Assembly (NCBI GenBank): GCA_029260825.1
Contig: JAJDCM010000367.1
Location: 8,456-72,455 of the forward strand
Source of the DNA: Planctomycetota bacterium
Lineage (GTDB): Bacteria > Planctomycetota > JACOTG01 > JAJDCM01
Reading direction: 5' to 3'
DNA: 64,000 nt
The translations under genes and the position numbers were made by a program. Under the pieces are notes generated by a model that searched no databases, was not told the DNA's origin, and worked only from the letters and a program-made list of their open reading frames with translations. Shown in pieces: positions 18,868 through 59,732 of this stretch (positions within the stretch are counted from its first letter, which is position 1; each line of letters opens with the position of its first letter).

Positions 18868-20007
18868 ATGAATCGAAATGGCATCACGTTCGGAATCGCG
18901 TTTGGTATATTCATTGCTCTTGGCCTTCTTGCCAGGCCGGCGAAGGCTATTACGGTGTCGATTCCCTGTGGAACCCAAAGGTGCTTTCCAAATCTCGATC
19001 CCCCTTTAGCCCTTCAGTTCACCGTCGTGAATATCGGAGACTGCGCCGGAAAGATCCTGGCCTTTGACCAGATGGATTGCCAAGGAACGACTCTCGTATC
19101 CGCCTGTATCGATCCTGGAGAAGTGATTACGATTGATCGCGCATCACGGGATGTTCGATCCATCTTGCTTGTGGCAATTGGCACAGGAAGTCAGGCACGA
19201 CTCGACTTCACTCCGATTGCGGAAGAAACCGTTCCCTCCGGGACAGTTCTTCCCTTTGCCGGAACTACGGTTCCTCAGGGCTTCCTTGTTTGTGACGGAT
19301 CCGAGGTCTCCCGAGACAGTTTCTCCCGACTCTTTGATCGTGTGGGAACGACCTACGGTGCCGGAGACGGATCAACCACGTTTAACCTCCCGGACCTGAC
19401 TTCCAGGTTTCCGCTGGGTCTTTCCGCCTCAGGGACAGGTTCGATGCTTGGCGAGACTGGAGGTGAAATCGACCATATGCATGAGGGAGCAAGCCACACC
19501 CACGGAGTACCCGGACATAGTCACGGTCACAATCTCACAGCGTCGGCATCGGGTAATCATCTCCACTCGATCTCCGGAACGACGAACGCAACCGGAAATC
19601 ATTCCCACGCCGTGATCGGGACAACCGCAGTGGGAGGGCTTCATCGCCATTGCTTCAATGCACATCAGGTCGGCAACTACACCAATGATAACAACAACCC
19701 TCCCAGTGGAATCGTGGGACACGTACAAGGCGGAATCGCGGCCAACCAGCCACGAGATATCACGACCCAGAACGGTGAACATTCCCACAGTTTCTCGACC
19801 ACTTCTGCAACAGCAGGGACCCACAATCACTCTGTCTCAGGAACAGCCCTGTCCGCCGGAAATCATGTCCACAGCATTGGCGGCGTTGTAGGAAACAATG
19901 GAGGTGGGAACGGAGATCAAACATTGAACACCGATCCTGGGACGAATGGAACAACAGGGATCGCCAATCCACCCTTCTTGACTCTCCGATTCATCATCAA
20001 GCTGTGA
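18868..20007 (+). CDS. Secreted phage tail-collar domain protein with His-rich fibre repeats
   Basis: Signal peptide (AKA); PSGTVLPFAG...GFLVCDG...LFDRVGTTYGAGDGSTTFNLPDL; nine HxH motifs; PPFLTLRFIIK end. Confidence 0.88.
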   Translation: MNRNGITFGIAFGIFIALGLLARPAKAITVSIPCGTQRCFPNLDPPLALQFTVVNIGDCAGKILAFDQMDCQGTTLVSACIDPGEVITIDRASRDVRSILLVAIGTGSQARLDFTPIAEETVPSGTVLPFAGTTVPQGFLVCDGSEVSRDSFSRLFDRVGTTYGAGDGSTTFNLPDLTSRFPLGLSASGTGSMLGETGGEIDHMHEGASHTHGVPGHSHGHNLTASASGNHLHSISGTTNATGNHSHAVIGTTAVGGLHRHCFNAHQVGNYTNDNNNPPSGIVGHVQGGIAANQPRDITTQNGEHSHSFSTTSATAGTHNHSVSGTALSAGNHVHSIGGVVGNNGGGNGDQTLNTDPGTNGTTGIANPPFLTLRFIIKL

Positions 20008-20173: not shown

Positions 20174-20746
20174 ATGTCCTTTTTTCGGGGGATCTTCTTG
20201 GACGGATCGCGAGAACAGAATGCTCCCCTTGACGAGGAGCTCACCGACGAGGTTTACCGGGAGCTTCGACAGCTCGCCGCCTACTTCATGAAAGGAGAGA
20301 GACGGAATCATACTCTCCAACCAACAGCCTTGGTTCATGAGGCTCTGCTTCGGATCGCTTCGTCCCGGACTTCCGTCCATAGCCGATCCCAGTTACTTGC
20401 CGTCGCTTCCGTCGCTATTCGTCGAGTTCTCGTCGATCACGCCCGGGGGAAACAGCGAATCCGGCGAGGTCGCGGGGTTCCAACTCTTGAATTCACGGAA
20501 GCCGACTCAACGGTTGCTCCTGAATCTCCGTTTCGCATCGAACTCATCGAACTCGATGAAGCATTGATCGAGCTCGAGCAACTCCATCCCCGCCAGGCCC
20601 GGATCATTGAACTTCGCTTCTTTGGCGGCCTGAGTGTGGAGGAAACGTCAAAAACTCTTGGCATTTCTCAACGCTCCGCCTTTGCGGACTGGGAGATGGC
20701 ACGACGATGGTTGAAGCGCCGACTAGCGCCCTGCGAGCCCGAATAA
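20174..20746 (+). CDS. ECF sigma factor (TIGR02999-type, kinase-associated)
   Basis: VYRELRQLAA...HTLQPTALVHEA...VLVDHAR...IIELRFFGGLS...DWEMARRWL. Confidence 0.92.
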   Translation: MSFFRGIFLDGSREQNAPLDEELTDEVYRELRQLAAYFMKGERRNHTLQPTALVHEALLRIASSRTSVHSRSQLLAVASVAIRRVLVDHARGKQRIRRGRGVPTLEFTEADSTVAPESPFRIELIELDEALIELEQLHPRQARIIELRFFGGLSVEETSKTLGISQRSAFADWEMARRWLKRRLAPCEPE

Positions 20747-20747
20747 A

Positions 20748-23468
20748 ATGAGTCGTGCAAGTTTCTTCAAAGTTCGGGAAGCATTTCACACGATGCTAGA
20801 ACTCTCCAAACACGAGCGGTTGTCATTCCTTGCGACAATGGCCTCTCAAGATCCAGAGGTCCATGCGGAAGTTCTTTCCCTCATGGAGCAGGAACCGGAT
20901 GATCTTCTGGACGGTTTCCTCAGGGTGCCAGCGCTGGGAACAGGCTTCAGTGTGTGCGCGGCTGTTTTTCCGCAAGAGCCCCCATCCGTCCCGAATCAAC
21001 TGGGCAGTTTTCGAATCAAGAGGATCTTGGGAGGAGGCCTCTATAGTTTGGTTCTCCATGCCGAAGAGAACCGCCCGGACTGTCCCCCCCGATCGGTTGC
21101 CCTGAAAATCTTGAGGCCTGGATGCTGTTCCGAATCAATGCGTCGCCGCTTTATCGCGGAGGGCGATTCATTGCTTGCCATCACTCATGAGGATGTGGTT
21201 CGTGTCTTTTCTCGGGGAGTTTTCGAAGATTTCGGCCCATGGCAAGGCACCCCCTTCCTCTGTCTCGAATATGTTGACGGCACTTCTATTGACGAATTCT
21301 GTCGTCGGGAAACCCTGAATCGCCAGGAACGCCTTGACCTGTTTGCTCGGGTCTGTGACGCGATCCAGCATGCGCACCACAAAGGGATCATCCATCGCGA
21401 CCTCAAGGTGACCAACATCCTGGTCTCCAGAAGTAACCGCAAATACTCTCCAAAAGTCATCGACTTCGGGGTTGCCTTGAATTCCAAGGATGAACCATCG
21501 GCAACCTTGACGCGACACGGCGAGCTTCTCGGAACAATATCGAACATGAGCCCGGAACAACTTTCCGGAAACTCGAACGGTGTCGATACCCGAACAGATG
21601 TTTACTCCCTGGGCGTCGTCCTCTATGAACTCGTCACGAACCAGCCGCTTTGGGATCTGGAAGGGCTCTCTTTTCTCGAAGCAACTCGCGTCATTGCCGG
21701 GCTCGATCGCCCCCCGGCATGCGGCATCGATGGCGATCTTCGAACAATCATCACAAAAAGCCTGGAAAGAGAACGAGATCAGCGCTACCCGACCGTGTCA
21801 GAGCTTGCCGCGGACGTTCGCCGTTTTCGGGATGGCTTCCCGATCATGGCGCGGCCACCAACAATCCAGGGCATCCTTGCCCGGTGGGCGTGGCGGCATC
21901 GAGCCTTTACCATTCTCTCCGGAGTCACCTCGATCATCCTCCTCTTTGCAGCAATTCACTTCGTGAGGTCGAAAGCGAAGGCTTCCCGGAACAATCGAGA
22001 GATGAGGGACACCCTGAGTGCAGCTCTCGACATTTCCCTGAGCATCGCAGAGTTCCCCGAGAAATCTAAAACGCATGTCGCAAACCTGGAGGATCTGCAT
22101 TCGATCTCAAACGATCTTACCGCTCGTGATCCCGAGAATCGGGACTTTTGGGACTGCCATGCGACGATTCAAGGCGCACTCTCGGATGCGTACGTCAAAG
22201 AAGACAACCATTCCCAAGGTCGGGCCCTGGCCGAAGACTCGCTACGACTGAGACAGCGCCTTGTAGAAAGTGATCCGGGTTCCGTAGACCTTCGCAAGAA
22301 ACTGTCTCTTGCCTATGTCCGTCTCGGGGATGCTAAGAGACGAGAGGATGATTCCCAGGGGTCCCTTGAGGCATACCTGGAAGCTCTTCAAATCGACGAT
22401 TTCCTGGCTGCAGAAGGGCCCAATGAACGAGAGCTGCAGGACAACCTGGGTTGGAGTCACGACCGGATCGGTCACTACTACCTCGAAAGACGAATGGATG
22501 ACCTGGCAGCAGCCTGCATCGCAGATCAACTCAGAATTGCACGTTGGCTCGTTCAACGGTTCAAAGGGGATTACCGTGGTTACTTCCTTCTTTCCGAAGG
22601 ACTCAAGAAATCTCATGTGATCAGCGCTCGCAACAAAGATCCGCTTCAGTTCCGATTGAATCTTCTGGACGAAGCGCTGTCCGCTGCACGAAAGGCGGTG
22701 GAGCTCGAGCCTCGAAACGGGCTCCTTCAAGATCGGCTCGGATCGATTCTTATCCGGATCGGTAATCAACTGGATGACATGGACCCTTTGATGGCTCTTT
22801 CGCACCTCGATCAGGGAATATCCATCACCCGGGATCTCTATCGGGCCGATCCTTCCCGGACAGATTTGTTGAGTCGGATCTATTTCGCAGGAACGGGTCG
22901 AGCGAGAGCTCTTCTGATACTGGGCAGAACCGAGGATGCAGCTGTTCAGATCAATCAATCCGTCCAGGGGATTTCAGCGATTGTCTCGATCCGTGGGACA
23001 CACGTCATGCGCCGTCGACTCGCCAATGCTCTCCTGATCATGGTTGATGTTCTGGAGCGGCAGCTTCGAATCGAGGAAGCTAGCGAGGCACTCGTCCAAG
23101 CACACGGAATCAACCTTGATCTGGCGCGAGAATCCGATGATCCACTCACGGATCAGCTTCGATGCGGTCAATTGCTGATCAACCGCCCCGCACACCCGGA
23201 GGACCGGGACCGTGGGCTCAAAATGCTCCTAAATGGAAGTGACCGATTCCCTCAGGAGCCGTCTTTTCTGGAGGCAGCAATCCGTGAGTTGATTCGCGTC
23301 GAGGAGATCGGGGAAGCGCGCCTGAAATTGAAGGAATGGCTGGAAAAATATGGGGGATCGGTGGGAGCCCAGACAAGAACGAGAGTCATTTCCATCTTCG
23401 ACGAGATCGAAGAGGCCTCCGACAACGATCGATCATCTGAAAGCGGGCTTGAATCAGGATCTCGTTAG
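20748..23468 (+). CDS. Ser/Thr protein kinase with TM helix and TPR-like C-terminus
   Basis: VALK, HRDLK, DFG, MSPEQ, DVYSLG; starts 1 nt after the ECF stop. Confidence 0.9.
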   Translation: MSRASFFKVREAFHTMLELSKHERLSFLATMASQDPEVHAEVLSLMEQEPDDLLDGFLRVPALGTGFSVCAAVFPQEPPSVPNQLGSFRIKRILGGGLYSLVLHAEENRPDCPPRSVALKILRPGCCSESMRRRFIAEGDSLLAITHEDVVRVFSRGVFEDFGPWQGTPFLCLEYVDGTSIDEFCRRETLNRQERLDLFARVCDAIQHAHHKGIIHRDLKVTNILVSRSNRKYSPKVIDFGVALNSKDEPSATLTRHGELLGTISNMSPEQLSGNSNGVDTRTDVYSLGVVLYELVTNQPLWDLEGLSFLEATRVIAGLDRPPACGIDGDLRTIITKSLERERDQRYPTVSELAADVRRFRDGFPIMARPPTIQGILARWAWRHRAFTILSGVTSIILLFAAIHFVRSKAKASRNNREMRDTLSAALDISLSIAEFPEKSKTHVANLEDLHSISNDLTARDPENRDFWDCHATIQGALSDAYVKEDNHSQGRALAEDSLRLRQRLVESDPGSVDLRKKLSLAYVRLGDAKRREDDSQGSLEAYLEALQIDDFLAAEGPNERELQDNLGWSHDRIGHYYLERRMDDLAAACIADQLRIARWLVQRFKGDYRGYFLLSEGLKKSHVISARNKDPLQFRLNLLDEALSAARKAVELEPRNGLLQDRLGSILIRIGNQLDDMDPLMALSHLDQGISITRDLYRADPSRTDLLSRIYFAGTGRARALLILGRTEDAAVQINQSVQGISAIVSIRGTHVMRRRLANALLIMVDVLERQLRIEEASEALVQAHGINLDLARESDDPLTDQLRCGQLLINRPAHPEDRDRGLKMLLNGSDRFPQEPSFLEAAIRELIRVEEIGEARLKLKEWLEKYGGSVGAQTRTRVISIFDEIEEASDNDRSSESGLESGSR

Positions 23469-23543: not shown

Positions 23544-25826
23544 CTATTCGAAATACAAGAGAATGGAGTTCGTCACGCTGAAGTTTCTGCTAGCCGACGA
23601 ATCCCGGTTGTGAATCAGACCAATGATTGTCCAGTATGTTCCTGGAAGGAAGTTCGCCGGATCTCCACTGGGCCGATGCAGTGCGATCGCCGGAGCAATC
23701 GGGGGATCGGCCATGGGAGTTCCAAAATAGTTCGTGGCGCCGATCTTGTTCGGGCGTCCAATGGTATTCAGAACGATCGACGGATTCCCGCCCTGAGTGA
23801 GGAGAATCTGGTGACAGATCTGCCCCAGGCCAAATGGGAGAGCTACGAGACTGCTCTCATCCGGGATCCCAGGAGTGACATGGATAACGTAAGATCCGTT
23901 ACTGTTCGCAGGAGGGTTCCCCATCACAATCGCCAGACTGCCGGAGGGACTCAGCTGCCTGAAAGGAATCGAGGAGCCATTCACCCTGAGGATGTTCATG
24001 ACATCGCTTCCTTGACAGTCGTCGATGCTGTTCTCAACAAACTCGAAGGCTCCCGGAATCGTGGCGGAACCACACGAGGAGTTTACGTTGACATCGACGA
24101 TTGCGGCCGGGGCAGCCGCCGTCCTCACCAACAGGGTGGTATCCGTCGAGGCCCCATGAACAACCATCGGAGTGCCGCCGAAGTCCACGTTCACATTCCC
24201 CTGAAGAAGTCCGGTTCCGGTGATCGTGACCAGGGTTCCTCCGGTGCTAAGGCCTTCGGTGGGAGTGACTGCACTCACCGAGAACGGAAGACAAGCATCA
24301 TAGGTAAAGCTACCGGCAAGAACATCTGAACCGCAGCTATTGGTGACCGTGACGTCAACAGTACCGGCGGCTCCGGCAGGAGTCACCGCATCGACGAAGC
24401 GAAAACCGGTCGTATCGTACACGGTGACACTCGGGCTCGGGACACCACCAAAAAGGACGGTGGTATCGGCGGAGTGGGTCATTCCATCGGCGGTGATGGT
24501 TACGACCTCGCCGCCTGCATCGTAGCCGTTTGCGGGGTCAAGACTGTTCACGGCGACCGCACTGCACGCTCCTAGCTCCAGGTGCCAGATGCAATCGGAA
24601 TCGGCGACAAGGATCTCGATCAACCCATCGCCGTCCAGATCACCCAGCCCTGCAATACTGTCTCCGAACGAATCACCGGTGACTCCGGAGAAGCCGCCGG
24701 TATTCGAGGCGATCTTCACCTCGGAGAGAGCGCGATAGACCCCATCTTGTGTGAGAAGGTGAATGTATACACCGCCATCGCCGGTGGGCCCAAGATCCCT
24801 GGGAGCGCCAAAGGCAACGTCGTCGATGAGATCACCATCCACATCACCGATGTTGTCGAGGGCATACGCAAACTGGGAGCGGACGTTGGGGATACACTCG
24901 AAGGGTCGATGAACGTGAAAACTGTTGAGATTCAGGCCACCGGTTGAGTCCTTCAAGTAGGCAACCGCTGCCGCCCCCCAGCTATCCATTCCGTTGATCC
25001 AGTCGACCCCGTATGCCCCCACGATGACGTCCTGGAGCCCGTCGCCGTTTCGATCTCCAGCGGAAGCGAGGGAGCTACCGAAGAACTGGTTGTCTTCACC
25101 AAAGAAAGTGAGGCCCGGAAGGTAGGGGCTGAAGTCCTCGGACTTCACGGTTCCGTCCGAGTTGAGCGCGAGGGACCACACACCTCCACTGTCGATCTCA
25201 CCAAAGGTTCCCGATCGGGGAACGCTGACCATGATGTCGGGAACACCATCGGTGTCGAAATCGCCAACGGCGGCGATCGCTGTTCCGAACTCATCGGTCT
25301 GACCGAGGGGCCCGGTGAATCCGGAAAGACCTTCTCCAATGATGGTCTCGTCCTTCACGGTTCCGTTCGTGTTCATGAGAAGAATGTGGACATAGCCCTG
25401 AGTCCCGCCGATGAACCCTCCGTCGGCGGCGGGTGCTCCCACCGCAAGATCGCAGACGCCGTCATCATCGACATCCCCGATGTTCTCGGTGGTGTAGCCA
25501 AAAAAGGTGCCGTCCACATCGGCCTGCAGTCCACCAAGACCGGTACCAATCTGTGCCGTCGAGCTGAAGGTGCCGTCGGTATTGAGGAAGGCGATGGTCA
25601 AGATGTCCGAGGTGACAATCGTGTAGGCGATGTCAACGATCCCATCCCCATCAAGATCACCGATATTGGACAGACCGTTCACGCTGGAGATCGGGATGGC
25701 CGTCTGAGAGACGACCTCACCGGCAATCTGCGCGGCGGAGGGAAAGGCAAAAAGGGCGAGTGAAAGCAGGGTGCACATCAGGATGTGGATTCGGGTTCTC
25801 GTTCCGAATCGAGACTCATCTTGCAT
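23544..25826 (-). CDS. Secreted FG-GAP/integrin-alpha repeat protein with two IPT/TIG domains and an unnamed C-terminal domain
   Basis: Repeated IGDLDGDG/FG...GAP motifs; GGEVVTIT and GGTLVTITGTG TIG domains; AAGGAG RBS before MQDES. Confidence 0.85.
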   Translation of the reverse strand: MQDESRFGTRTRIHILMCTLLSLALFAFPSAAQIAGEVVSQTAIPISSVNGLSNIGDLDGDGIVDIAYTIVTSDILTIAFLNTDGTFSSTAQIGTGLGGLQADVDGTFFGYTTENIGDVDDDGVCDLAVGAPAADGGFIGGTQGYVHILLMNTNGTVKDETIIGEGLSGFTGPLGQTDEFGTAIAAVGDFDTDGVPDIMVSVPRSGTFGEIDSGGVWSLALNSDGTVKSEDFSPYLPGLTFFGEDNQFFGSSLASAGDRNGDGLQDVIVGAYGVDWINGMDSWGAAAVAYLKDSTGGLNLNSFHVHRPFECIPNVRSQFAYALDNIGDVDGDLIDDVAFGAPRDLGPTGDGGVYIHLLTQDGVYRALSEVKIASNTGGFSGVTGDSFGDSIAGLGDLDGDGLIEILVADSDCIWHLELGACSAVAVNSLDPANGYDAGGEVVTITADGMTHSADTTVLFGGVPSPSVTVYDTTGFRFVDAVTPAGAAGTVDVTVTNSCGSDVLAGSFTYDACLPFSVSAVTPTEGLSTGGTLVTITGTGLLQGNVNVDFGGTPMVVHGASTDTTLLVRTAAAPAAIVDVNVNSSCGSATIPGAFEFVENSIDDCQGSDVMNILRVNGSSIPFRQLSPSGSLAIVMGNPPANSNGSYVIHVTPGIPDESSLVALPFGLGQICHQILLTQGGNPSIVLNTIGRPNKIGATNYFGTPMADPPIAPAIALHRPSGDPANFLPGTYWTIIGLIHNRDSSASRNFSVTNSILLYFE

Positions 25827-26029
25827 CGGTTCTCCTTCTCTTGACTGGATGTGGCTCATCAAACTCAGATGACCGGACACTGCCTTCCAGTTCTCGAGAA
25901 GCACGATCCGAACGAGAAATGTGGAAATATTCTGGATCCGATGAATTCAGGTGACTTTGGTGCCCAGATCAGGCGATTAGCACGAGAACGCAGCCCTTCC
26001 ACTCGCTCTGGAATCGATTTTCGATGACA

Positions 26030-28843
26030 TCACGGTCTCACTCGCCGGATCACCCGAACCCCGGGCCGCCCCCACCGGGCGTTGTCCAGGACGCCGGCCC
26101 GGGCCGCTGACCTGCACTTGATGGGAGTATCCGTGCTTCCCCCTCCACGGATCGGGTACCGATGACCTTCCTCCCAGTCCCGGGCAAAATAGCGCAGTCC
26201 ATCGCCGGGCCGGGCTTCCATTGTCGTGTAGGCCCGCCGAATGAAAACATCTGCGGCCAGTTCCCTGGCGTTACCGTGCATGTCGTACAGACCGAACGGA
26301 TTGGGCAAGAAACTGCCAACCGGAGCATTGCCCCGAAAGCGGTCATCGATTTGCTGGCTTGGCTTTCCAAAGACGGGAGATTCCTCCTGCCCCACGGATC
26401 GGTCCCAAACATTGGCGTGATTTTCGAGAGACGCAATGGAGTTGCCTGTGTAGAAAGCCGTCGTGGTCCCCGCCCGGCACGCATATTCCCACTGGGCTTC
26501 GCTTGGAAGTTGAAGCCAGGTTCGATCAAGAACTTTTAGCAGAGCAATCCGATTGGATAGGATCGGAAGAGCACTATGGCTTTGACTTGGCAGCAAGGTT
26601 CCGCCCAGTCGAACAAACTGGGCTCCGGTGAGCTCGTATTTCGAAACAAAGAATGGATCGAGCAGAACGGAGTGGGCCGGTTGCTCCTGATCGAGGTCCA
26701 ACGCGGGAATCGGCTCCTCGAAAGGAACCCCAGTCGATCTCGTCCCAACTTCAACCACACCTCCGGGAAGCAAGACCATCACGATCCCGGTTTCGGCGTC
26801 GATCTCAAGTCGACATGGGTCGTCCGGCGTCGGCTCCGCTCCGGGAATTGCCCCACTGATCACATGGACGAATTCCCACAATCCGCTCTCTGAATTGCGT
26901 CGCAGTGGAAAAAGCCCCATCTGGGGTTCGATCTTGAGGCCCCGGTAGACTTCCAGTTCGGAGATTTCTCTCTTGGCTCGATCCCATTCGGCGGCCGGGT
27001 CCAACATCGATGTCTTGTGTGCAAAGCGAATCCCTTGCTCGTGGGCAAGAACCTTTTTTTCCAGATCCAGTAATTCTCGATATTCCGTTTCGATGAGACG
27101 AGTCAACATGGCATGGCGCCATTCTTCGCTCCGGGTCCCGAACGTCCAGGTTCTTCTGTGGTCCTTGGTGGAAAGCTTGTCGATGAGCCGCTTGAGGTTG
27201 ACAAGCTCAGCGTCGTTGTAGATGTTGAAAGCTTCGGGATCGTCCGCCCGCTCCATGAGATCTTCCAGGCTCCGGAGCTCCTTGCGAAGACCAGCAATCC
27301 TCTCCTCATCGGGGGCTCGATCCATCCTCTCCTCTTCCTCCGTATACGGAAGTGCATTCTCGCGGATGGAGGTGAGCTCCCTCTGATAGATCGAGTACCT
27401 CTTGCGGACCTGGTCAACCTTGCCATACCAGTTCCCCATCTCTTCGAGACGTCCCGGGTCCATCGGCCAGAACGACCAGGCCTCCCGGGTCATCTTGGCG
27501 ATCCAGTGCGAGTCGGCCAGAAGCTGGATGCGTTGAAGGGCCACCCGTTCTCGCGCCGCGGTGAAGACAGCGAAAAAAAGCAACAAGGAAAAAAGCGCCA
27601 GGGAAAGGACGACGATCGGATGGCGTCTCGAGAAGATGCGTGCTCGGGCCGACCACCCAGGACCGGTGGCGACGACGGGCATTCCGGCAAGAACGTTTGC
27701 GAGATCCCGAGAAAAATCGACGGCACCCGAATACCGGGAGTCCGGTTCCCGGCTCATCGCTGTGAGACACACCATCTGAGCGTTCCGCGGGATCGCCGGA
27801 TTCCAGGTACGCGGAGTTCGCACATCCCCCGCAATGATCCGTTGCATCGTCCCCTCGTTGGAACCAGACTCGAAAGGGTCTCGGAGAGTGAGGCTCTTAT
27901 AAAGTGTTACCCCGAGAGAGTAGATGTCGGTTCGCTTGTCGGTTGCGGTCGATCCACGAACCTGCTCGGGCGACATGTATAGCAACGAACCGACCTGGGT
28001 TCCCGTTCGAGTGAGTTGAGTTGCATCGCTCGAACGAGCGAGTCCAAAATCAATCAGGACCGTCCGCCCGGCCGGAGTCACCCAGATATTGGAAGGCTTG
28101 ATGTCTCGATGCACGATCCCCCGGTCGTGGGAGTGATCGAGAGCCCGGGCAACTGCTTGAGTGATACGAATACAGGCCTCGCTCCAGGTTCCTTCGAACA
28201 GGGCTGGAAGCTCCACGGGCGAGACTTCGTCTTTTGCCCCGGAAGACCGAGCCTGAAGATCAAGGATCGCTTTGAAAAGATCCTCGCCGGTGAGTGCTTC
28301 GGGCTGCCGACCTTCGAAACAACCGAGCACATCGTGGAGAGTGGATCCTTCGAGCCATTCCATGACAAAAAACGGGATCTCTCGATCTTGGCCAACGGAA
28401 ATCACCGACACAATGCCCGGATGTTCGAGCCGTGCAATGGCCTCGACTTCCCGCCGAAAACGCGCCACATCTTTTGAGTCGTAGATTCGATCCGGCCGGA
28501 TCACTTTGAGAGCAACGCGGCAAGCCTGAGTCCCCTGCTGGGCCAGGTAAACAACCCCCATCCCCCCGCCGCCGATTTTTCGGATCAGGCGAAACTCACC
28601 GAGCTGTTCGGGAAAGCTTGCAGGAGTGCCGGCGGATTTTGAATCCACCAGCCCCATGGCATCCAATCGTTGAAAGCCTTCCCGGAGCTGCTGAGCATGG
28701 TTCGGATGCTCGGCGCACATCGCCTCGAGAGCACCCCTTCCCTCCTTCGATACGCGCTCAAGGCAAAGAAAGAGCAGCTCGTCTCGGATGGTTGGTGAAC
28801 CGGATTCTTCGGGATTCACAGACATCAGGAGGCCTTTCACCAC
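26030..28843 (-). CDS. Ser/Thr kinase - FGE/SUMF1 domain fusion
   Basis: GGGGMG, HRDIKPSN, DFG; LPSEAQWEYACRAG, PNPFGLYDMHGN. Confidence 0.92.
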   Translation of the reverse strand: MVKGLLMSVNPEESGSPTIRDELLFLCLERVSKEGRGALEAMCAEHPNHAQQLREGFQRLDAMGLVDSKSAGTPASFPEQLGEFRLIRKIGGGGMGVVYLAQQGTQACRVALKVIRPDRIYDSKDVARFRREVEAIARLEHPGIVSVISVGQDREIPFFVMEWLEGSTLHDVLGCFEGRQPEALTGEDLFKAILDLQARSSGAKDEVSPVELPALFEGTWSEACIRITQAVARALDHSHDRGIVHRDIKPSNIWVTPAGRTVLIDFGLARSSDATQLTRTGTQVGSLLYMSPEQVRGSTATDKRTDIYSLGVTLYKSLTLRDPFESGSNEGTMQRIIAGDVRTPRTWNPAIPRNAQMVCLTAMSREPDSRYSGAVDFSRDLANVLAGMPVVATGPGWSARARIFSRRHPIVVLSLALFSLLLFFAVFTAARERVALQRIQLLADSHWIAKMTREAWSFWPMDPGRLEEMGNWYGKVDQVRKRYSIYQRELTSIRENALPYTEEEERMDRAPDEERIAGLRKELRSLEDLMERADDPEAFNIYNDAELVNLKRLIDKLSTKDHRRTWTFGTRSEEWRHAMLTRLIETEYRELLDLEKKVLAHEQGIRFAHKTSMLDPAAEWDRAKREISELEVYRGLKIEPQMGLFPLRRNSESGLWEFVHVISGAIPGAEPTPDDPCRLEIDAETGIVMVLLPGGVVEVGTRSTGVPFEEPIPALDLDQEQPAHSVLLDPFFVSKYELTGAQFVRLGGTLLPSQSHSALPILSNRIALLKVLDRTWLQLPSEAQWEYACRAGTTTAFYTGNSIASLENHANVWDRSVGQEESPVFGKPSQQIDDRFRGNAPVGSFLPNPFGLYDMHGNARELAADVFIRRAYTTMEARPGDGLRYFARDWEEGHRYPIRGGGSTDTPIKCRSAARAGVLDNARWGRPGVRVIRRVRP

Positions 28844-40896: not shown

Positions 40897-43641
40897 TCAG
40901 TCGACCTTCCTCGCCGGCCGAACCCCAAGTGCGTTATACTTCAAACCCGCTGAATCATAAAACCGGGACGAGGATCTACAGCCGGAAGGAGGATCAAGAA
41001 AGCTACCACCACGCACCACAGCGTTGATCTCCGCACCCGGAAAACTCACCTCACGCAAACCATCTCCTGGGCGAACAGGAAACGAGTAGGAACCGGATGG
41101 GTCGCGGCACCACTCGGAGACATTTCCCAGGACATCATGCAGCCCAAAAAGATTGGGACGAAACGAGCCGACCGGAGCGTGGATCACGTAGCCGTCATCG
41201 AGAGACTCCTCACAATCCAGCCCAGGGCGACGGATCTGTGCCATTCGAAATCCATCCGAAACGTTGGCGGCATTCGCAAGAGAGGAGACCTCATTGCCAG
41301 TCCACCAGCTCCCCGTGGTGGATGCCCGAGCCGAATATTCCCATTGAGCTTCCGTGGGCAGAACGAGTCGGAGTCGACCAAGAACATCGGCGCACTGGTA
41401 TCGATCCACATTCTCAACCGGATGAATGAAAGAGTGTGGAGACTTGGACCGACTCCACCATTCCTCCCAGTTGTTTGCACCACAATAGCTGGGATTCTCG
41501 CCGGTCGTACGCATCCACTGGGCCTGATTCATTTCATACTTGGAAAGAAAGAACGGGTCCAGAGTAACGGTTCGTACAGGACCCTCGTCCCCTCCAGCAA
41601 ACGGATCTCGATTCGGACCTGCAGTCCGTCTCTTTACCGCTCCCATCCGGAATGATCCGCCAGGAATGAGAACAAACACGAGGCCCGTGTCCGTGTCGAT
41701 CAAGATCTTTCCCGTTTCATCACGACCGGGCATCTTGCCCGACTGCAGAAGCAGGAACTCCCACAGCCCCGATTCGGAATCGCGCCCGATGGGAACCAAA
41801 CCGACCTGATGGTCCATCTGCAACCCCTCGTAGGCAGGGCACTCCTCCTGGTTCGCGATGGATCGAATCGCTTCTTTCCATTCCCCCGCGTAGTCTTCGA
41901 CCGACTCCTTGTAGATTGCGCTCGCTCGGTTCAATCTCTGCTGAACATCGGCAATGAGCCCAATCGCGGGATCAGGATCAACAAAGGTTTCAAGTTGAGT
42001 TACGAGTTCCGCCAGGACATCGTTAATCCACTGGGCTTCCGTGTCTTCAAACCTGTAGGAACTCGCGCCAGGAATAGGTTGCCCCGAATCCTCGGCTTGC
42101 TTGATGGCGCCCTTTCGAATCCGGCCCAGGGTTTCCCGATGCTTCTGTCGATTTGCCGCAAGGTCCTTGGCGTTTTCAAGCCAGGCCTCCATGTCATCAA
42201 TTCTCTCGGGATAAGCGGGCCATAGTGATCCGGCGGAGGAGGTAGCATCCGCCAGCCGCTTCGCGTCGGAAAGCTGAAGGATCTCCTTTTTCTGTGCGCG
42301 CTCCCGCTCTTCTGCTCTTTCTGCAGCCTCGCGCGCTTCTCTCTCCTTGGCTTCCGCCTCCTGAGCACGAATTCTCTCCTGATCAGCCAGAGACCAGCCT
42401 TCTTTTGCTTCCGCCTCTCGACGCTCCGCGAGGGAGCGCGCCTCCTGGGCATCGACAGTTGCCGAAGCGGCTCGAAAGTAAAAAACCGTAGCTGTGATTC
42501 CTCCCGCAACGACGACCAACAGGATCGCCGCGATGCTACTCACCAGGCCAGCGTTCTTCTTCACGAACTTCTTGATGCGGTAGCCCCCGCTGGGAGGGCC
42601 CGCAGAAACAGGTTCGTCATTGAGATGACGTTGAATGTCGGCGGCCAGGTCGGATGCGGTGGCATAGCGGCGGGTTCGGTCCTTCTCCAGCGCTTTCATT
42701 GTGATCCAGTCCAGATCACCTTTAAGACGGCGAACCAGCGCATGCCCACTCACCTGACAGCGAGATGACGCAACGGACGTCAGGCTTTCCTCAGATCCGA
42801 TCTTCGTGCTCGGTTTCTTGGGCTCTTCCTCCCAGAGTCGTCTTCGCACCGCATCCACCGCGCCTCGGGGCTCCTGGGTTGGATGCGGCGTCATCTCAAG
42901 AGGAAGAGAACCCACGAGAAGCTGGTAGAGGATGACACCCAGCGAATAGATGTCGGTTCTCGTGTCAATGTCGAGAGTTGTCGGGTCGGCCTGCTCCGGA
43001 CTCATGTAATCCGGAGTTCCCATCATCACGCCGATTGATGTGACACATGTCTTGTCTGTCAACCGGTGCCCTCCGATGGCCTTTGCAAGACCAAAGTCGA
43101 TGATCTTCGGGATGGGCCGGTTGTCTTCTTCCGAGACGATGATGTTGGAGGGTTTGAGATCCCGATGAATGATTGCCTTTTGATGAGCGTGCTGGACGCC
43201 AAGGCAGATGTCCCGGAACAACTCCAGGCGCTCCCGGATCCGGAGCTTCTGCCGATCGCAATGCTCGATGAAAGGGATTCCCTTCACGTACTCCATGGCG
43301 AAATACGGCCGTCCATCCCGGGTAGCACCGGCAAGAAGAATCCGAGAAATATTGGGGTGGCTCATCAGGGCCAGTGCCTGTCTCTCCGATTCAAACCTGG
43401 CGATGACCGATTCGGTGTCCATGCCGGCTCTTATGACTTTGAGCGCGACCTTTTGCCGAACCGGTTCTTGCTGCTCGGCAAGATAAACGGTCCCCATCCC
43501 ACCTTCACCGATCGTGGAAAGGATCTTGTAAGGACCGATGGTCTCGTGAGTCGGGTGTGGAGTGCGAGTAAAACCCGGTTCCTCGTCGGAAAACCGGGTT
43601 GGTTCCTCCGAATCGCCGAAGGAAAAGTCGTCGTTCATCAT
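40897..43641 (-). CDS. Ser/Thr kinase - FGE/SUMF1 domain fusion
   Basis: [27 protein letters not shown]; [25 protein letters not shown]. Confidence 0.92.
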
Positions 43642-43819
43642 TCTTGTTTTGGCCCCTGGAGAGTTTTCTCTCTCCCAATGATAGGGGGCCAAAAGGCCGC
43701 TTGCAAGCCTCCCTCCCATTCGCACGGTCGGTACCAGACGTAGGGCCACCAAATCGGGGGCGTGTCATCCCCCGCGGAGCATCCGGTCGATCCGAGGATT
43801 CGGATCCCAAGACATCCTT

Positions 43820-51792: not shown

Positions 51793-51793
51793 G

Positions 51794-52433: not shown

Positions 52434-55400
52434 TCACCGGTTGCAAGCTCCATTCTGCTCGGCGAGCTTCCGGGTCTGTTGGCACAACTGCCAGCAGTCG
52501 TCATCCCTGGAGAGAAAGCGCTCGGCTTCGTCAAGAGCATCCAGGGCTTCATCGGCTCTCCCCAGATCAACAAAACCCATCGCCAAAAAGACAAGGGCAC
52601 CAGGTCGAATCTCTTCGACCCCTTTTGCTTCGGAACGAACAAGATCCTCAAGACACATCACACCGTCCAACGAGTCTCCGCACCGAATCCTCGCGGCCCC
52701 CAAATTCCGGAGATAGAGCGGAACTTCCGTATCAAGTCCAAGCGCGATGATCGAAGCATCTCTGGATCTAGACCAGGCGTCGCTCCCGGAACCGGAGTCC
52801 AAGAGGGTTCTCCAGGTGCGCCATGCAAGTCGACGCGGGTCATTTCCCTCGGCCCGAATGACCTGCTTCATGGCCCGGCGCTCGTCGTCACCCCGGAAAG
52901 AGACTCCGGATATGAATTCCAGTCGCTCTCCCACATTCATGTCACTCGAATTCGTTTGATCGAGTCGAGCCGCCACCTCTTCCCGAAGGATTCTCTGCTG
53001 CTTCCGGACCGATTTCTCTTCCACGGAGCGCCCCTGCTCCCAAAGCCTCACCGTTCGATCTTTCGATGCCGACGCCAGAGTTGCTCCTGAAGGACTGAAG
53101 GACACCGAATTGACCCACCAGCTATGACCGAGAAGGCGGGCAACCACCTTCATGGACTCCACGTCCCAGATCAGGATGCTTCGGTCCCTTGCACCCGAAG
53201 CTAGCCGGCTGCCATCCGGTGTAAAGCTAAGGGAGGTGACCCCGCGCGAATGGGCCTTCTCACGACGAAGTGGAACCAGCCCCATCCCCCGGATTTCCCA
53301 GATCTGGATCGATCCGCCGGTGCTCCCTCCGAACAGACGAGATCCATCCGGCGAAAAACAAAGGGACAGGATCGAATCTTCGGCACCGAGACTCGAACTC
53401 ATCGCTGACCAGCTCGAAGTCTGCCACAGCTTCACTTCCCCGTCCGTCGATGCTGAGACAAGCCATCCTTCGTCTGGAGAAAAAACGAGGTCCGTGATGC
53501 CACTCCCATTTCCTTCGAGAACTCGAAGGATGCTCATGGCATCCGGATCCCAGATCAAGATGGTTCCGTCGCTTGATCCCGACGCCAACCATCGGCCGGA
53601 AAGTGAGTAAACGACCGAATCAACCCAGCCCGTGACCTCCGCGCACCGGGTGACGGCACCGGTGGAAAGATCTACAAAGCATACTGCGGGGGACCGGGTC
53701 CCGACGGCAAGCTGGTTTCCCCCGGGGTTAAACGCGACGTCGTGGACATGATGCCTGGCATAGTAAGTACCGATATCGATGGCCGATTCGGCATCCCACA
53801 CCTTGATGACATAGTCCCAGCCTGCGGAAGCAAGCCGCCTTCCTTCAAGATCCCAGGCGACGGCCTGAACATAGACCGGGTGCCCCCTCAGAACCTCCAC
53901 GTCGGAAGAAACCGAATCGCTCCAGAACTTCACGGCTCCCTCGAATCCACCCGAAACAAATATCTTGCCCTTCGGTGATACCGCAAGAGCTGTAATAGGT
54001 TTCTCATGACCTCGAACAATCGACTCAACTTTCTCGGTCTTCGTGTCCCACCACCTCAAACTCCGATCTTCGCCGGCCAGAAGGACCTTGTTGGGAGATG
54101 AGGGATGGGAAAGACCAAAGGCGATCCTGTCCGTATCAGAGCCATAGTGGCTCTCGACCCGATCTTCGCGTCCAAACGTCTGAACTCCATGACTGATGGA
54201 CACGATACTCTCATCGCTTCTGTCGTAGAAAGCCCTGACCTTCCCAGGAAACCGATCCAAACGTCGAACAAGCCGTCCGGTTTCCGCATTCCACTCACAC
54301 ACACCGGACGCGCTCGTGAGAATCCGATCGCCTCCATGATTGTAGGTCAAGCTGATGACATCGGCCCGATCAGCCGCGATCACAAGAATCTCTCGCCCCG
54401 AAACAACGTCGATGACGCGAACTTCCGGTCCGACCGCAATTGCTAGGGAATGCCTTTCCGGATGAAGCGCAATGTCAGGGACCGATCCCCTCTTCGACCG
54501 GAAGAGTTCGCCGACTTCCCCCCCGGTCTTCAGGCTCCACTTTTTGACCGACCCGTCCTCTGATCCGGAAATCAGCACTTGCTTTGAAAGAAATTTCACT
54601 GCATGCACAAGACCCTCATGCCCCTCGAAAGAATGGACCAGGGTTCGCTTTTCCGTATCCCAGACCTCGATCATGTTTCCGTAGGCGACGGCCAGAAGTT
54701 CTCCATCCGGGCCAAAGGAAAGAGATCGAATCCAGCTCCCGAACTCGAGGGTGCAATCACTCTGATCAAGCCTCCCGTAGAAGTGATGCCACTCCCAGTT
54801 CCGGAGAGAAGCCGGTGCCGCCTCGAGCTGCCGCCGTGCTTCCGGCACATCATTGATCCTTAGCGCCGCCTCCGCCGCGCTCATGCTGGCGATATAGCTC
54901 TGAAGCAGAGCCTCTTTCCGCTCGGAGGCAATTGCCCTCTTTGCCCGATTCTCCTGAACCATCAAGGCGGACGGAGTCACCACGACAAAAACAAGGATCA
55001 CCAGAGACGCCGCTGCAATGAAGCGATTTCTTCTGACCCACTTCTGGAGATCAACCAGTGGCCCGATACGATGAGCAGCAACGGCTCGCCCATCAAGATG
55101 GGCTTCGAGATCTTCCGCCATGTCCAGCGCACTCGAATATCGCTTCTTGGGATCGCGCGTCATGGCCTTGCTGCAGATGGCCACGAGCTCGGGATGAGCA
55201 TCGGGATTGATGCGATCGACGGCAACCGGTTCACCCCGATTGATCTTCTCCACGATGTCTTGCTGTTGCCCACCACGCTTCACATCTTCGTACGGCCTTT
55301 GATCCGCGAGAAAAGAATAGAGAATCGCACCAAGAGCATAGATATCCGAAAAGGGCCCGACCGCCAGCGGGTCACCGGAAGCCTGCTCGGGCGACATATA

Positions 55401-56339
55401 ATAAGGAGTACCGAGAACCGCACCAGCAACGGTCATCAAGGGAGAATCCGGAGTGGTCTCGAGCTCATCACGACGATCTGTCCGGATAACATCCAAGTCT
55501 TCAGAGTCGGGTCGACTCTCTTCATCGTCCTTGCAGCGGCCGTTTTCAGCCAGCAATTTAGCGAGCCCCCAGTCCAGGACATAGGCCTCGCCGAACTGGC
55601 CCACCATCACATTCGAGGGCTTGAGATCCCGATGAACGACTCCCTTGGAATGAGCATAGGCAATGGTCTGGCAGATCTTCACAAGAACTCCAAGTGCCCT
55701 CTGCTGATTCCATCCTTTGTTACCCGCTCGAGCAAGGCGGAAGATCTCTCCCAGCTCCTCACCTCCAACCTTCTTCATGGTGAAGAAAACGTGGCCCTCA
55801 GCGTCGACTCCCAGGTCGTGGATCGGGACCACGCCCGGATGATCGAGTTGCCCTGTGATTTGCGCCTCCTCGAGAAAACGAGAGAGCGCCCGGCGTGTCC
55901 GGGAGGTTGCTGCAGGCCCGGATTGGGGGCTCCGGCTGGCACCGGCCACTTTCATGGCCAGTCTTCGCTTGAGGTCGAGATCTTCGACCTCAAGGACGAT
56001 ACCCATCCCTCCACGACCCAGATTGCCGACGATACGATAGCGAGAATCATCATCACCCTTGGCGATGGCTCGCTCAACCAGGCGGTCAAGACGAGCGTCG
56101 GTGGATTCCGAGCCATCGGAAGAACTCGGACGTTCTCGATCGGCGGCGATTCCACAAACCTGCTCCAGCCACACCCAATCCTTGAAGAGAGACTCGACTT
56201 CGGATGCTTCGAGGGGATGCTTCTTACGGAGGATCTCCCAGTCCTCCTGACTCGGGTCTGGTGAAGCTTCCAGAAACTCCAGAAAGACCCGTTCCGTGGA
56301 CGGTGAGATCGACGACGGCCCTGTATTTTCCTTTTTCAT
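52434..56339 (-). CDS. Ser/Thr kinase with WD40 repeats
   Basis: [27 protein letters not shown]; TM helix; many GH...WD repeats. Confidence 0.93.
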   Translation of the reverse strand: MKKENTGPSSISPSTERVFLEFLEASPDPSQEDWEILRKKHPLEASEVESLFKDWVWLEQVCGIAADRERPSSSDGSESTDARLDRLVERAIAKGDDDSRYRIVGNLGRGGMGIVLEVEDLDLKRRLAMKVAGASRSPQSGPAATSRTRRALSRFLEEAQITGQLDHPGVVPIHDLGVDAEGHVFFTMKKVGGEELGEIFRLARAGNKGWNQQRALGVLVKICQTIAYAHSKGVVHRDLKPSNVMVGQFGEAYVLDWGLAKLLAENGRCKDDEESRPDSEDLDVIRTDRRDELETTPDSPLMTVAGAVLGTPYYMSPEQASGDPLAVGPFSDIYALGAILYSFLADQRPYEDVKRGGQQQDIVEKINRGEPVAVDRINPDAHPELVAICSKAMTRDPKKRYSSALDMAEDLEAHLDGRAVAAHRIGPLVDLQKWVRRNRFIAAASLVILVFVVVTPSALMVQENRAKRAIASERKEALLQSYIASMSAAEAALRINDVPEARRQLEAAPASLRNWEWHHFYGRLDQSDCTLEFGSWIRSLSFGPDGELLAVAYGNMIEVWDTEKRTLVHSFEGHEGLVHAVKFLSKQVLISGSEDGSVKKWSLKTGGEVGELFRSKRGSVPDIALHPERHSLAIAVGPEVRVIDVVSGREILVIAADRADVISLTYNHGGDRILTSASGVCEWNAETGRLVRRLDRFPGKVRAFYDRSDESIVSISHGVQTFGREDRVESHYGSDTDRIAFGLSHPSSPNKVLLAGEDRSLRWWDTKTEKVESIVRGHEKPITALAVSPKGKIFVSGGFEGAVKFWSDSVSSDVEVLRGHPVYVQAVAWDLEGRRLASAGWDYVIKVWDAESAIDIGTYYARHHVHDVAFNPGGNQLAVGTRSPAVCFVDLSTGAVTRCAEVTGWVDSVVYSLSGRWLASGSSDGTILIWDPDAMSILRVLEGNGSGITDLVFSPDEGWLVSASTDGEVKLWQTSSWSAMSSSLGAEDSILSLCFSPDGSRLFGGSTGGSIQIWEIRGMGLVPLRREKAHSRGVTSLSFTPDGSRLASGARDRSILIWDVESMKVVARLLGHSWWVNSVSFSPSGATLASASKDRTVRLWEQGRSVEEKSVRKQQRILREEVAARLDQTNSSDMNVGERLEFISGVSFRGDDERRAMKQVIRAEGNDPRRLAWRTWRTLLDSGSGSDAWSRSRDASIIALGLDTEVPLYLRNLGAARIRCGDSLDGVMCLEDLVRSEAKGVEEIRPGALVFLAMGFVDLGRADEALDALDEAERFLSRDDDCWQLCQQTRKLAEQNGACNR

Positions 56340-56655: not shown

Positions 56656-57252
56656 TTGGCTTCTACTGGGCCCGACAATCCGGACGACAACAAGCAAACC
56701 TTGATCCGCCAAGCACGCGACGGGGATGAGCAGGCACGGAGCGAACTCTTCAAACTCTGTTCCCCCACTCTCGAAATCTATCTGCGAAAGAGAATGGGAC
56801 CGAGCCTACGCCGATTCGCCTCCTTATCTGACGTTTGCATGGAGACTTTCGGGCGCCTCTTTCGGTCCCTTCATGTACTCCCGGAGGAAGCCTCGCTTGA
56901 CGATGTACAGGGGATCTTGTTTCGCAACGCCAACTGGACCCTCGCCGACCAGGGACGCAAGGCAGCGAAGTTCCGTGGAGAGTCTGCGGGAGGCGCTACA
57001 GGCATCGAGGATCAGCCAATCGGGGAACTCGATGCCGGAACAGTTACTCGAGACGACGAAATGGATTGGATTCGACTTCAGATCCACAGATTGAGTGAGA
57101 ATCAAGCCCAGGTTGTCGAGAGAAGACTTGGGGGCATGAGCTTTGAGGCAATTGCGGAAAACCTGGGCATTGCAAAGGACACGTGTCGAAAACGCTATCT
57201 CCGAGCGTCGCTTCGGCTGAAGAAACTGATCGGATCGGAATCCGACGCCTGA
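56656..57252 (+). CDS. ECF sigma factor
   Basis: LIRQARDGDEQARSELF region 2; LSENQAQVV...MSFEAIAENLGI region 4; divergent from the WD40 kinase. Confidence 0.85.
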   Translation: MASTGPDNPDDNKQTLIRQARDGDEQARSELFKLCSPTLEIYLRKRMGPSLRRFASLSDVCMETFGRLFRSLHVLPEEASLDDVQGILFRNANWTLADQGRKAAKFRGESAGGATGIEDQPIGELDAGTVTRDDEMDWIRLQIHRLSENQAQVVERRLGGMSFEAIAENLGIAKDTCRKRYLRASLRLKKLIGSESDA

Positions 57253-57256: not shown

Positions 57257-57982
57257 CTACTGGTGAGCCTCCCAAAGGAAGGTGACGTCACTGGCGTTCC
57301 CATCCCACTCCAGAGTGAATCCATCCGGATCAAAGCTCACCAGAGTGGCGCTCTTTCGGGTAAGACTGATGCTGTCGGCAACCGTAACGATCGCCACAAT
57401 CCGGTCACTGAACTCGTGAGGTCGACCGATGTTCGGATTGCCGCTCCAGTGCCCGACCGCATGCTGGTTCTTGACAGAAGTGGCGATGCCAATACTGCTG
57501 GAGACAATTGGCGGGCTCGCGACTCCGATATTGAAGAGTACAGTAATTTTTACCATCGCCGGCTCGAAGCCCACCCCCGTGATGCTCTGGACGAACGGAC
57601 CTTGGGATGGTCCGGTAGCCACACCTGCATCGTGCAGCGGGGTTGCCCCCAAACCTGTGGCGACCAAAAGAGCACCTGTTACTCCCTGGGTGCCGATCGT
57701 CACCCGCACCGAACTCGTACGCGGGAACGGACGATTGACGGTGGCCGACTCTCCTGGCGCCAGGTCGAGATCCAGTAGCACGGTACCTGTTTGGTCGGGT
57801 TGATCAAATGCCTCGATGTGCGCCGAACAGTCTCCCGCATTGACCACCCGAAAGGCGAGGGTCACCGATCGGTTGAAAGTCCGGGTGATACCACAACCGA
57901 AGCTGAACTGAGCCGCACGGGCCGAGCCGACGGCAAGAAGAGGAAGAAAAACGGCCAGAATGGACAACTTACTCATACGCAT
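57257..57982 (-). CDS. Secreted protein: N-terminal domain shared with 18868-20007, possible phage-tail-like C-terminus
   Basis: Signal peptide (ARA); CG...FRVVNAGDC...AFDQPD..GT...PGE; QSITGVGFEP...ATLVSFDPDGFTLEW. Confidence 0.75.
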   Translation of the reverse strand: MRMSKLSILAVFLPLLAVGSARAAQFSFGCGITRTFNRSVTLAFRVVNAGDCSAHIEAFDQPDQTGTVLLDLDLAPGESATVNRPFPRTSSVRVTIGTQGVTGALLVATGLGATPLHDAGVATGPSQGPFVQSITGVGFEPAMVKITVLFNIGVASPPIVSSSIGIATSVKNQHAVGHWSGNPNIGRPHEFSDRIVAIVTVADSISLTRKSATLVSFDPDGFTLEWDGNASDVTFLWEAHQ

Positions 57983-59448: not shown

Positions 59449-59732
59449 AGAGTCTCCGTTACTCTCTGGCCTATGCACATAAACGTGCCACTCATCCGGG
59501 CCCGCCTCGACCGCGTAATGCTCAACCCCCATGTGCTTCCAAAGATCGTACAACACGAAGAGACATGAGCACCTCCTTGGGGTTCAATCTACTCTTCGTA
59601 GCATCGGGAAACTCGTCTCATTCTTTGACCTCTTGCCATGGCATAAAGAGAAATAGGGAAACTTTCCGCTCAAGACATCCGGGAGACGGCCTACAATCAA
59701 CAATGAAGTCCGTCCTGATCGAGGTAACACCA

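Follow-up and report, generated by a model that had tools for sequence, protein, structure and literature searches.

Why would a bacterial chromosome encode exported proteins that end in the receptor-binding tips of phage tail fibres? The question is raised by two genes, here termed gene A (18868..20007, + strand) and gene B (57257..57982, − strand), in a 64,000-nucleotide stretch (the window) of contig JAJDCM010000367.1 from an uncultured Planctomycetota bacterium. Each encodes a signal peptide and a shared N-terminal domain (N-domain), followed in A by a tail collar with a needle rich in His-x-His (HxH) motifs, as read from its translation, Pfam Collar and tail PHROG families, and in B by one phage repeat module. 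The answer that we favour, on balance, is that A and B form, within one bacterial lineage, a counterpart to the mosaic adhesive trimer (MAT) fibres known from Bdellovibrio: they would be exported, anchored by the N-domain, bind through phage-type tips and be controlled by neighbouring sigma factors and kinases. The architectural part of this picture is held with far greater confidence than the picture as a whole, and the anchoring and regulatory parts with less.

Both genes are intact open reading frames (ORFs). Gene A encodes a protein of 379 aa (P0001), and gene B a protein of 241 aa (P0002) if translation is taken to start at the ATG at 57982, which yields a canonical signal peptide and is preceded by an AAAGGA box; the longest ORF of gene B begins at 58135. 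The signal peptides were called by a simple script alone, from a charged n-region, a hydrophobic h-region and a small-x-small site. In A, the predicted signal peptide covers residues 1-27 (18868..18948, +), with cleavage between ARPAKA and ITV, and its h-region has a Kyte-Doolittle value of 2.77 over 12 residues, followed by an A-x-A site. In B, it covers residues 1-23 (57914..57982, −), with cleavage between GSARA and AQF. The script found no further membrane or hydrophobic segment in either protein, and it assigned a signal-peptide-like N-terminus to 15 of 15 family proteins. Alignment of the family revealed that the shared domain begins 1-2 residues past the predicted cleavage site.

BLASTP comparison of A against B revealed 37 identical residues over 95 (39%), with an E-value of 2e-12, spanning the last part of the signal peptide and ~85 residues beyond it. 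The N-domain was assigned to residues 28-116 of A (18949..19215, +) by this comparison, alignments A3 and A6 and a profile match in the genome, and to residues 24-117 of B (57632..57913, −) by BLASTP, profile A3 and an AlphaFold2 model. In their own genome, A and B match profile A3 with E-values of 5.1e-30 and 1.5e-35, respectively. BLASTP gave no other alignment for the rest of the two proteins, of which the C-termini are unrelated. The original prediction, made from the DNA letters alone, had described just such a pair, with signal peptides, a common domain of about 90 aa and unrelated C-termini, and every one of these elements was recovered.

The tip of A is a tail collar, in agreement with its initial assignment. 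Its core, residues 125-182 (19240..19413, +), matches the Pfam family Collar (PF07484) with an E-value of 8.1e-21 and 74.2 bits against a cut-off of 24; no match to this family was found in gene B. At an E-value of ≤0.1, A matches 23 PHROG families, comprising 17 tail families, five of unknown function and one of head and packaging, the best being the tail collar protein phrog_19618 (E 8.8e-31). The best solved relative of the tip is the phage long tail fibre 8kec_A (E 2.4e-9, residues 76-297), to which the collar core was aligned. Between the core and the last strand lies an HxH-rich insert (residues 203-335; 19474..19872, +), and all 21 histidines of A fall within residues 200-345. Nine HxH motifs had been counted originally, a number that stands if the overlapping HSHGH is scored once and becomes ten if it is scored twice. 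The last strand NPPFLTLRFIIKL, which with the stop codon occupies 19966..20007 (+), is predicted to close the collar fold; it also ends the relative P0078 and the two other collar proteins of the genome. In phages, the HxH ladders of gp37 and gp12 bind metal ions on the trimer axis, and needles like that of gp37 exist only as metal-binding trimers. By analogy, the insert of A is a putative metal-binding trimeric needle, as suggested by the motif count and by a weak alignment of A to the T4 gp37 tip 2xgf (E 0.05).

Of the two other collar proteins in the genome, one is a second exported-type protein of 257 aa (G000:C170, L069:1267-2040, +), which has a signal peptide, a coiled coil and a collar with HxH-like motifs and lacks the N-domain. 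The third collar protein (L067:1162-1689, −) has no signal peptide.

The tip of B (residues 118-241; 57260..57631, −) is a single copy of a phage repeat, as assigned by HMMER, AlphaFold2, BFVD comparison and a homotrimer model, and no second copy of this C-terminal module (C-module) was found in the genome. The whole protein has no match in Pfam, NCBIfam or PHROG. A HMMER search of B against 1.84 billion representative proteins gave 396 matches at an E-value of ≤1e-3. Among the best 150 of these, one is B itself, nine match the N-domain (residues ~8-120) and the remainder match the C-module (residues ~120-235), with E-values reaching 2.9e-22. In these best 150 matches the module is mostly present three times in tandem, in proteins of about 410 aa (range ~400-460 aa) with a repeat of ~110-130 aa. 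Alignment A5 of the repeat has the near-invariant columns G19, F22, P24 ... S99, D101, D103, G104, F105 and T106. The segments ITGVGFEP and SFDPDGFTL of B, which the original prediction had linked to phage tail proteins, are both present and fall on these columns (GxGFxP ... SxDxDGFT).

A pattern scan of IMG/VR located the C-module at no fewer than, that is at least, 47 confirmed viral loci (L020-L066). Five of these loci were examined by comparing 40 ORFs with the PHROG families. The neighbours of the repeat gene include a major head protein (L021 and L051) and a head-tail adaptor and an internal virion protein (L051), and in L037 the repeat gene precedes a tail spike or fibre gene. The repeat itself has no Pfam or PHROG match in the repeat proteins tested, those of these five loci included. 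Among GenBank phages, the C-module occurs in five records, all 41,774 bases long. One of them, MW202725.1 (labelled Podoviridae sp.), was examined and carries the module within an 886-aa protein at the end of the late operon. The triple-repeat phage family (L020-L066, P0003-P0151) sits in podovirus-like structural modules.

AlphaFold2 predicted the C-module of B with a predicted local distance difference test score (pLDDT) of 89.1 and a predicted template modelling score (pTM) of 0.82. Structural similarity search against BFVD showed that the model resembles predicted proteins of uncultured Caudovirales, with template modelling scores of 0.67-0.73 and E-values of about 1e-6. Foldseek gave no match in the PDB at an E-value of ≤0.001. 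Solved structures with a similar fold are chain 9f4a_LA of a Klebsiella phage baseplate, with a Z-score of 7.0 and a root-mean-square deviation (RMSD) of 3.6 over 101 residues, and the C-terminal domains of phage tailspikes (Z 5.4-5.5), both near the usual best of the method. As a phage chain contains three repeats, a homotrimer was modelled for the single repeat of B. The model scored 0.76 (0.76, 0.76 and 0.70 in individual runs) versus 0.23 for the best control, with at least 83% contact agreement between runs and a partner pLDDT of at least 78. Among 30 proteins whose solved structures are same-chain pairs, 20 reached the mark set by this score, compared with 1 among 23 single-chain structures. 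As modelled, the single-copy module of B probably forms a trimer that rebuilds the three-repeat unit of the phage proteins.

The N-domain is rare. "Exactly two" is its copy number in the window's genome (8.37 Mb in 425 contigs, 90% complete), namely A and B. A profile search at an E-value of ≤0.001 detected it in 3 of 401 sampled genomes of the phylum. All three belong to one order, which is represented by four genomes in the sample, that of the window included. Its metagenome relatives fall into protein clusters of 1-2 members; the family is restricted to this lineage. Word-index protein searches recovered the query alone, both with the whole of P0002 (1 of 3588 candidates) and with residues 1-120 of P0001 (1 of 383). 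Neither a four-row N-domain alignment nor P0088 matched the genome contigs, and two 19-residue matches of that alignment to metagenome contigs were discarded because they lie outside any ORF.

A search for further tips had been proposed at the outset, and the relatives do carry other ends, namely collagen, NHL propeller, collar and β-lactamase. Their architectures were read from the sequences and from Pfam and PHROG matches. The most elaborate protein, G001:C42, has a signal peptide, the N-domain, a tail-fibre-type neck (GNVGIGT...KLDV), a collagen region and an NHL/YNCE propeller, and P0071 and P0020 have the same layout without collagen. P0012 and P0129 have a neck, collagen and a Gly-rich end, P0078 a neck and a tail collar, and P0043 a neck and a coiled coil; P0040 has an end of the β-lactamase family, and P0154-P0157 are small two-domain proteins. 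Collagen (PF01391) was found in G001:C42 and P0012, whereas its Gly-X-Y repeats are absent from A and B in the Pfam scan. A different arrangement is seen in the metagenome protein P0089 (572 aa), in which the N-domain lies at the C-terminus of a multi-pass membrane protein and not after a signal peptide.

Comparison of the relatives revealed a mosaic organization. The N-domain of A is 45% identical to that of G001:C42, which in turn is 45% identical to that of P0129, and the tips differ in each pair. Across the 14 aligned family members, the nearest N-domains bear different tips. A modular system with a constant N-domain and swapped, phage-related tips, as the original prediction put it, is supported; the fibre that it also envisaged needs correction in that A and B carry no fibre shaft. 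Judged from their sequences, A and B are short two-module proteins, and the neck and collagen elements of a shaft are seen in the relatives only.

No known family accommodates the N-domain. The 14 aligned N-domains share no common Pfam family even at an E-value of ≤1, and no NCBIfam or PHROG match was found; the alignment between A and B, whose significance and novelty had been singled out for checking, is thus both significant (E 2e-12) and outside these collections. AlphaFold2 predicted the N-domain of B as an eight-stranded β-sandwich, with a pLDDT of 91.8 and a pTM of 0.80. Foldseek gave no match in the PDB at an E-value of ≤0.001, and the best score in the ESM Atlas, 0.77, is under the level of meaning. 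With an exhaustive structure aligner, the top match is the Bacillus endospore appendage subunit Ena1B (7a02_A), with a Z-score of 8.7 and an RMSD of 3.7 over 85 aligned residues. Further matches with Z-scores of 6-8 include PirA, a GOLD domain and many cupins, together with Ena2A (7.5), Ena1C (6.2) and Ena3A (6.2). Two cysteines are conserved, in 10 and 13 of the 14 rows of alignment A6. In sequence and model, the N-domain represents a new small family with a confident predicted structure and no clear structural relative.

The best sequence-profile match of the N-domain in the PDB, a galectin-1 tandem fusion (E 6.4e-5), was put down to a linker or to sequence composition, as is probable given that no galectins came up in the fold searches. 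In the same genome, a 2488-aa protein composed of DUF11/DUF7507/CARDB repeats is encoded at G000:C80 (L010:1966-9432, −). Comparison of A6 with a repeat of this protein by hhalign gave a weak similarity, with a probability of 68% and an E-value of 4.9e-5 over 51 columns; a two-row N-domain profile matched the protein (E 5.1e-4), and a 12-row profile did not.

Are A and B then genes of a prophage? A Pfam scan of 52 window ORFs, with those at 51071-52114 (+) and 56355-56768 (−) left out, revealed no capsid, sheath, baseplate, portal, terminase, virion or injection-system families. The absence of capsid, baseplate and sheath genes had been remarked upon before, and it now extends to injection loci. 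The ORFs of the window encode ordinary chromosomal functions, such as cytochrome oxidase, sulfatases, regulators and four Ser/Thr kinases. Fibres of virions lack signal peptides. A and B are set apart from virion tail fibres on two counts, namely that no virion gene set surrounds them and that their N-termini resemble export signals. Phage collections were searched as well, and the N-domain was found neither in 50,697 phage records (tblastn, E≤1) nor in a pattern scan of IMG/VR. The tips do not differ from the genome in GC content, either overall or at third codon positions, and a recent horizontal transfer of the tips was rejected on these grounds. Given this agreement and the absence of the N-domain from these phage collections, the constant part is best regarded as cellular and lineage-specific, and the variable parts as long-resident and phage-derived. 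On this reading, both genes belong to the cell itself and not to a prophage.

Each gene abuts an extracytoplasmic function (ECF) sigma factor gene paired with a Ser/Thr kinase gene, which upholds the original prediction on this point. Downstream of gene A, across a gap of 166 bases, lies an ECF sigma gene (20174..20746, +; PF07638, E 4.7e-42; TIGR02999, 160 bits against a cut-off of 126), which runs straight into the gene of a Ser/Thr kinase with a TPR region (20748..23468, +; Pkinase, E 1.6e-33; TPR matches below cut-offs). Next to gene B, and convergent with it, lies an ECF-type sigma gene (56656..57252, +; Sigma70_r4_2, E 2.3e-8; PF07638, 31.6 bits against a cut-off of 21.1), with 4 bases separating the two stop codons. 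Divergent from this sigma gene lies the gene of a Ser/Thr kinase with WD40 propellers (52434..56339, −; Pkinase, E 1.3e-30; WD40, E 1.5e-71). The clear homologue in G001 is likewise convergent with a sigma gene, which follows a gene for a kinase with Pkinase, PDZ and FGE-sulfatase domains. At the two window loci and in G001, no gene for an anti-sigma factor can be discerned between the sigma gene and the kinase gene.

The adjacency is not readily attributed to the abundance of such genes. Sigma matches to PF07638 number 50 in the genome and kinase genes 121, and for 35 of the sigma genes a kinase domain lies no more than 2.5 kb away; for 8.37 Mb, this is an extreme expansion of this signalling type. 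Of its 6118 ORFs, 83 (1.36%) directly flank a PF07638 sigma ORF; both N-domain genes do so, for which the chance is about 1.8e-4, and a chance adjacency is unlikely. Sigma A and sigma B align over 44 residues of region 4 (E 2e-5), and sigma B against the G001 sigma factor gave nothing below an E-value of 4.7, the comparison of sigma A with G001 lying outside this analysis. As the three sigma factors have no close similarity, a single duplicated cassette does not explain their position next to the family.

Based on these results, we propose the following course of events. A Sec signal peptide would export each protein, in which the private β-sandwich N-domain of ~90 aa comes first and a ligand-binding module from phage tail fibres or spikes comes last. 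Once outside, the constant N-domain might hold the protein on an envelope or matrix component, or on itself. The tip of A, a tail collar with a HxH needle of the gp37 kind, would trimerize around its metal ions, and that of B, a single podoviral repeat, would be a probable trimer as well; either variable trimeric tip would bind an outside ligand, probably a glycan. The adjacent ECF sigma factor would drive each gene, and the paired Ser/Thr kinase would set the activity of that sigma factor.

Several observations weigh against this proposal. A Sec signal carries a protein only to the periplasm, and an outer-membrane export route was not identified. A and B are without the neck or collagen shaft typical of most relatives, so that the term fibre may overstate them. 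The Z-score of the best fold match of the N-domain is near the noise of the method, of which the usual best for any model is 7-8, and the trimer model for B used three copies and a triple-repeat alignment, unlike the calibration of the tool. As for regulation, no sigma/kinase pair adjoins the divergent small homologues G002:C528 and G001:C32, though the contig of the latter is only 3 kb long. Neither the three genes nor their sigma genes have a k-mer motif in common upstream; 8-10-mers shared among the seven upstream regions compared are at chance level, with one 10-mer common to the regions upstream of A and its sigma gene, and scans for sigma-70 promoters and terminators gave sites no more numerous than in shuffled sequence. 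Nor is a general rule supported that sigma/kinase pairs adjoin secreted proteins: by a crude script, and with 31 of the 35 pairs placeable, signal peptides were called in 22 of 55 flanking genes versus 364 of 1183 in the background.

A bolder version of the proposal would make the N-domain an Ena-like docking or self-assembling jellyroll fixed by its cysteines, with phage tips captured repeatedly and each tip gene wired to its own sigma/kinase sensor; we consider it rather unlikely. If it were true, different surface binding specificities would be switched on by different signals, amounting to a programmable repertoire for adhesion or capture, which a relative of the Planctomycetes would have evolved separately from the MAT fibres of Bdellovibrio.

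The same neighbourhood could be read in the opposite direction, with A and B as periplasmic ligand-binding co-sensors that feed the adjacent kinase/sigma pair and hence are inputs, not outputs, of signalling; some sensor kinases are served in this way by periplasmic binding proteins. A Sec signal by itself predicts the periplasm, a sigma gene directly adjoins in all three clear family loci, and the three kinases differ in their extracytoplasmic-type domains (TPR, WD40, and PDZ with FGE-sulfatase) as the tips differ. Yet the three kinases are so unlike that they offer the constant N-domain no partner of equal constancy, the relatives resemble long collagen and neck fibres rather than binding proteins, and phage receptor-binding tips are built for surfaces. 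We regard the co-sensor explanation as unlikely.

The fold matches of the N-domain lead to another possibility, namely that A and B are subunits of an Ena-like fibre, in which a disulfide-locked jellyroll N-domain polymerizes or caps a polymer, giving a pilus-like appendage decorated by the tips. Fibres of the Ena type consist of jellyrolls joined by disulfides and end in collagen-like proteins (PMC11362473), which would agree with the ranking of Ena1B ahead of all other folds, with the Ena2A, Ena1C and Ena3A matches and with the two conserved cysteines. Against this, the Z-score for Ena1B hardly exceeds what the method usually returns, PirA, GOLD and cupin folds score about equal, and the 14 N-domains have no consistent Pfam match at an E-value of ≤1. 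Moreover, a genome has 1-2 copies of the domain, and no separate gene for a major subunit was seen. Such appendages are, in our estimation, very unlikely. Finally, it is most improbable that A and B are decayed phage or tailocin remnants without a cellular role, placed beside sigma/kinase pairs merely by the abundance of the latter (50 PF07638 matches, 121 kinase genes and 35 pairs), as both tips are indeed of phage origin but both frames are intact with signal peptides, none of the phage collections searched contains the N-domain, no other phage gene occurs among the 52 ORFs, the same layout is conserved across families of the order, the GC content matches the genome and the chance of the adjacency is as low as given above.

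Some features of the surroundings are recorded here in their own right. The window contains four Ser/Thr kinase genes in 64 kb (20748-23468, 26030-28843, 40897-43752 and 52434-56339), two of which have C-terminal FGE-sulfatase domains. Downstream of the kinase of A lie genes for large secreted-type proteins at 23544-25904 (−) and 28882-31788 (−), one with FG-GAP and IPT/TIG domains and one with β-propellers, and in G001, genes for HYR/TIG/PD40 proteins surround the sigma-kinase pair. Divergent from gene B, a radical SAM/SPASM gene (58318-59448, +) overlaps at its end a 166-aa ORF without family (59445-59945, +). Radical SAM genes near B and near both divergent homologues (L015:2-745, −, and L016:4511-6163, −) were considered as a common partner and rejected, as they are of unrelated types with 22% identity and belong to different NCBIfam families.

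Were the MAT-like proposal that we favour correct, bacteria far from Bdellovibrio would have independently joined a private N-domain to phage receptor-binding tips, and cells would have turned phage tips to surface recognition of their own more than once, so that such reuse would no longer be the curiosity of one predator. It would also give a first clue to the targets of some of the many kinase-linked ECF sigma factors in Planctomycetes-like bacteria, of which 35 such pairs are present here. In addition, it points to a large uncharacterised phage family, with 396 relatives at an E-value of ≤1e-3, of which the single-copy form found here is predicted to trimerize. The N-domain family and its link to sigma factors and kinases appear to be undescribed in the literature, the MAT-like proteins of other bacteria tabulated in the supplement of the MAT paper lying outside this survey. 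Searches for tail collars in Planctomycetes, or for secreted collar proteins with a signal peptide, gave nothing relevant, and among the papers listed from 2024 none joins the mosaic adhesive trimer with Planctomycetota.

Comparison with known systems further places the two proteins. The tip of A resembles those of T4 gp37 and gp12 (PF07484; 8kec, 2xgf) in its collar, its long HxH-rich insert and its closing C-terminal strand, and differs from them in that a Sec signal peptide and a non-phage domain stand in place of the shaft, away from virion genes. The tip of B corresponds to one repeat of podovirus-like triple-repeat proteins such as the 886-aa protein of MW202725.1 (E down to 2.9e-22), which have three tandem repeats compared to the one repeat of B, itself fused to a signal peptide and the N-domain. 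The Ena appendages of Bacillus endospores have the jellyroll subunits to which the N-domain fold comes closest, at a level near method noise; the N-domains are not members of DUF3992 by sequence, and the host has a Gram-negative-type envelope and no spores. The relatives of A and B, with an N-terminal targeting domain, a collagen stalk and a globular head, are reminiscent of BclA and L-BclA, whereas A and B have no collagen region and no BclA-family membership by sequence. The direct coupling of a sigma gene to a Ser/Thr kinase gene at A, B and G001 is akin to that of the kinase-associated ECF groups (ECF43, ECF59-62 and others) described in PMC7826278.

The closest parallel is the MAT fibres of the predator Bdellovibrio bacteriovorus. 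As described (PMC10769870), these have a signal peptide, an invariant β-rich N-domain without a PDB homologue, a phage-like trimeric body and swappable tips that vary among many paralogues, and are displayed on the surface; that the N-domain holds the fibre on a cell surface element was inferred, not shown, by the authors. The MAT N-domain is of ~130 aa, compared to ~90 aa in the family of A and B, which moreover have neither a β-prism shaft nor an S74 domain. The tips found here are a collar with an HxH needle and a podoviral repeat, the genome has two copies, these sit beside ECF sigma/kinase pairs, and the host is not a known predator. Model support for a trimer is limited to the tip of B (0.76 versus 0.23 for the control), and the listed HMMER matches of B, including the nine to the N-domain, contain no sequence link to MAT proteins, homology with which was not directly tested; none of those nine is of MAT size. 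What the two systems do have in common is the layout of a signal peptide, a conserved β-rich N-domain and diverse C-terminal tips among relatives. The principle of joining a private N-domain to swappable phage-like tips is already known from the MAT fibres, and given an architecture of the same logic, A and B may be read as short members of an analogue in the Planctomycetes lineage.

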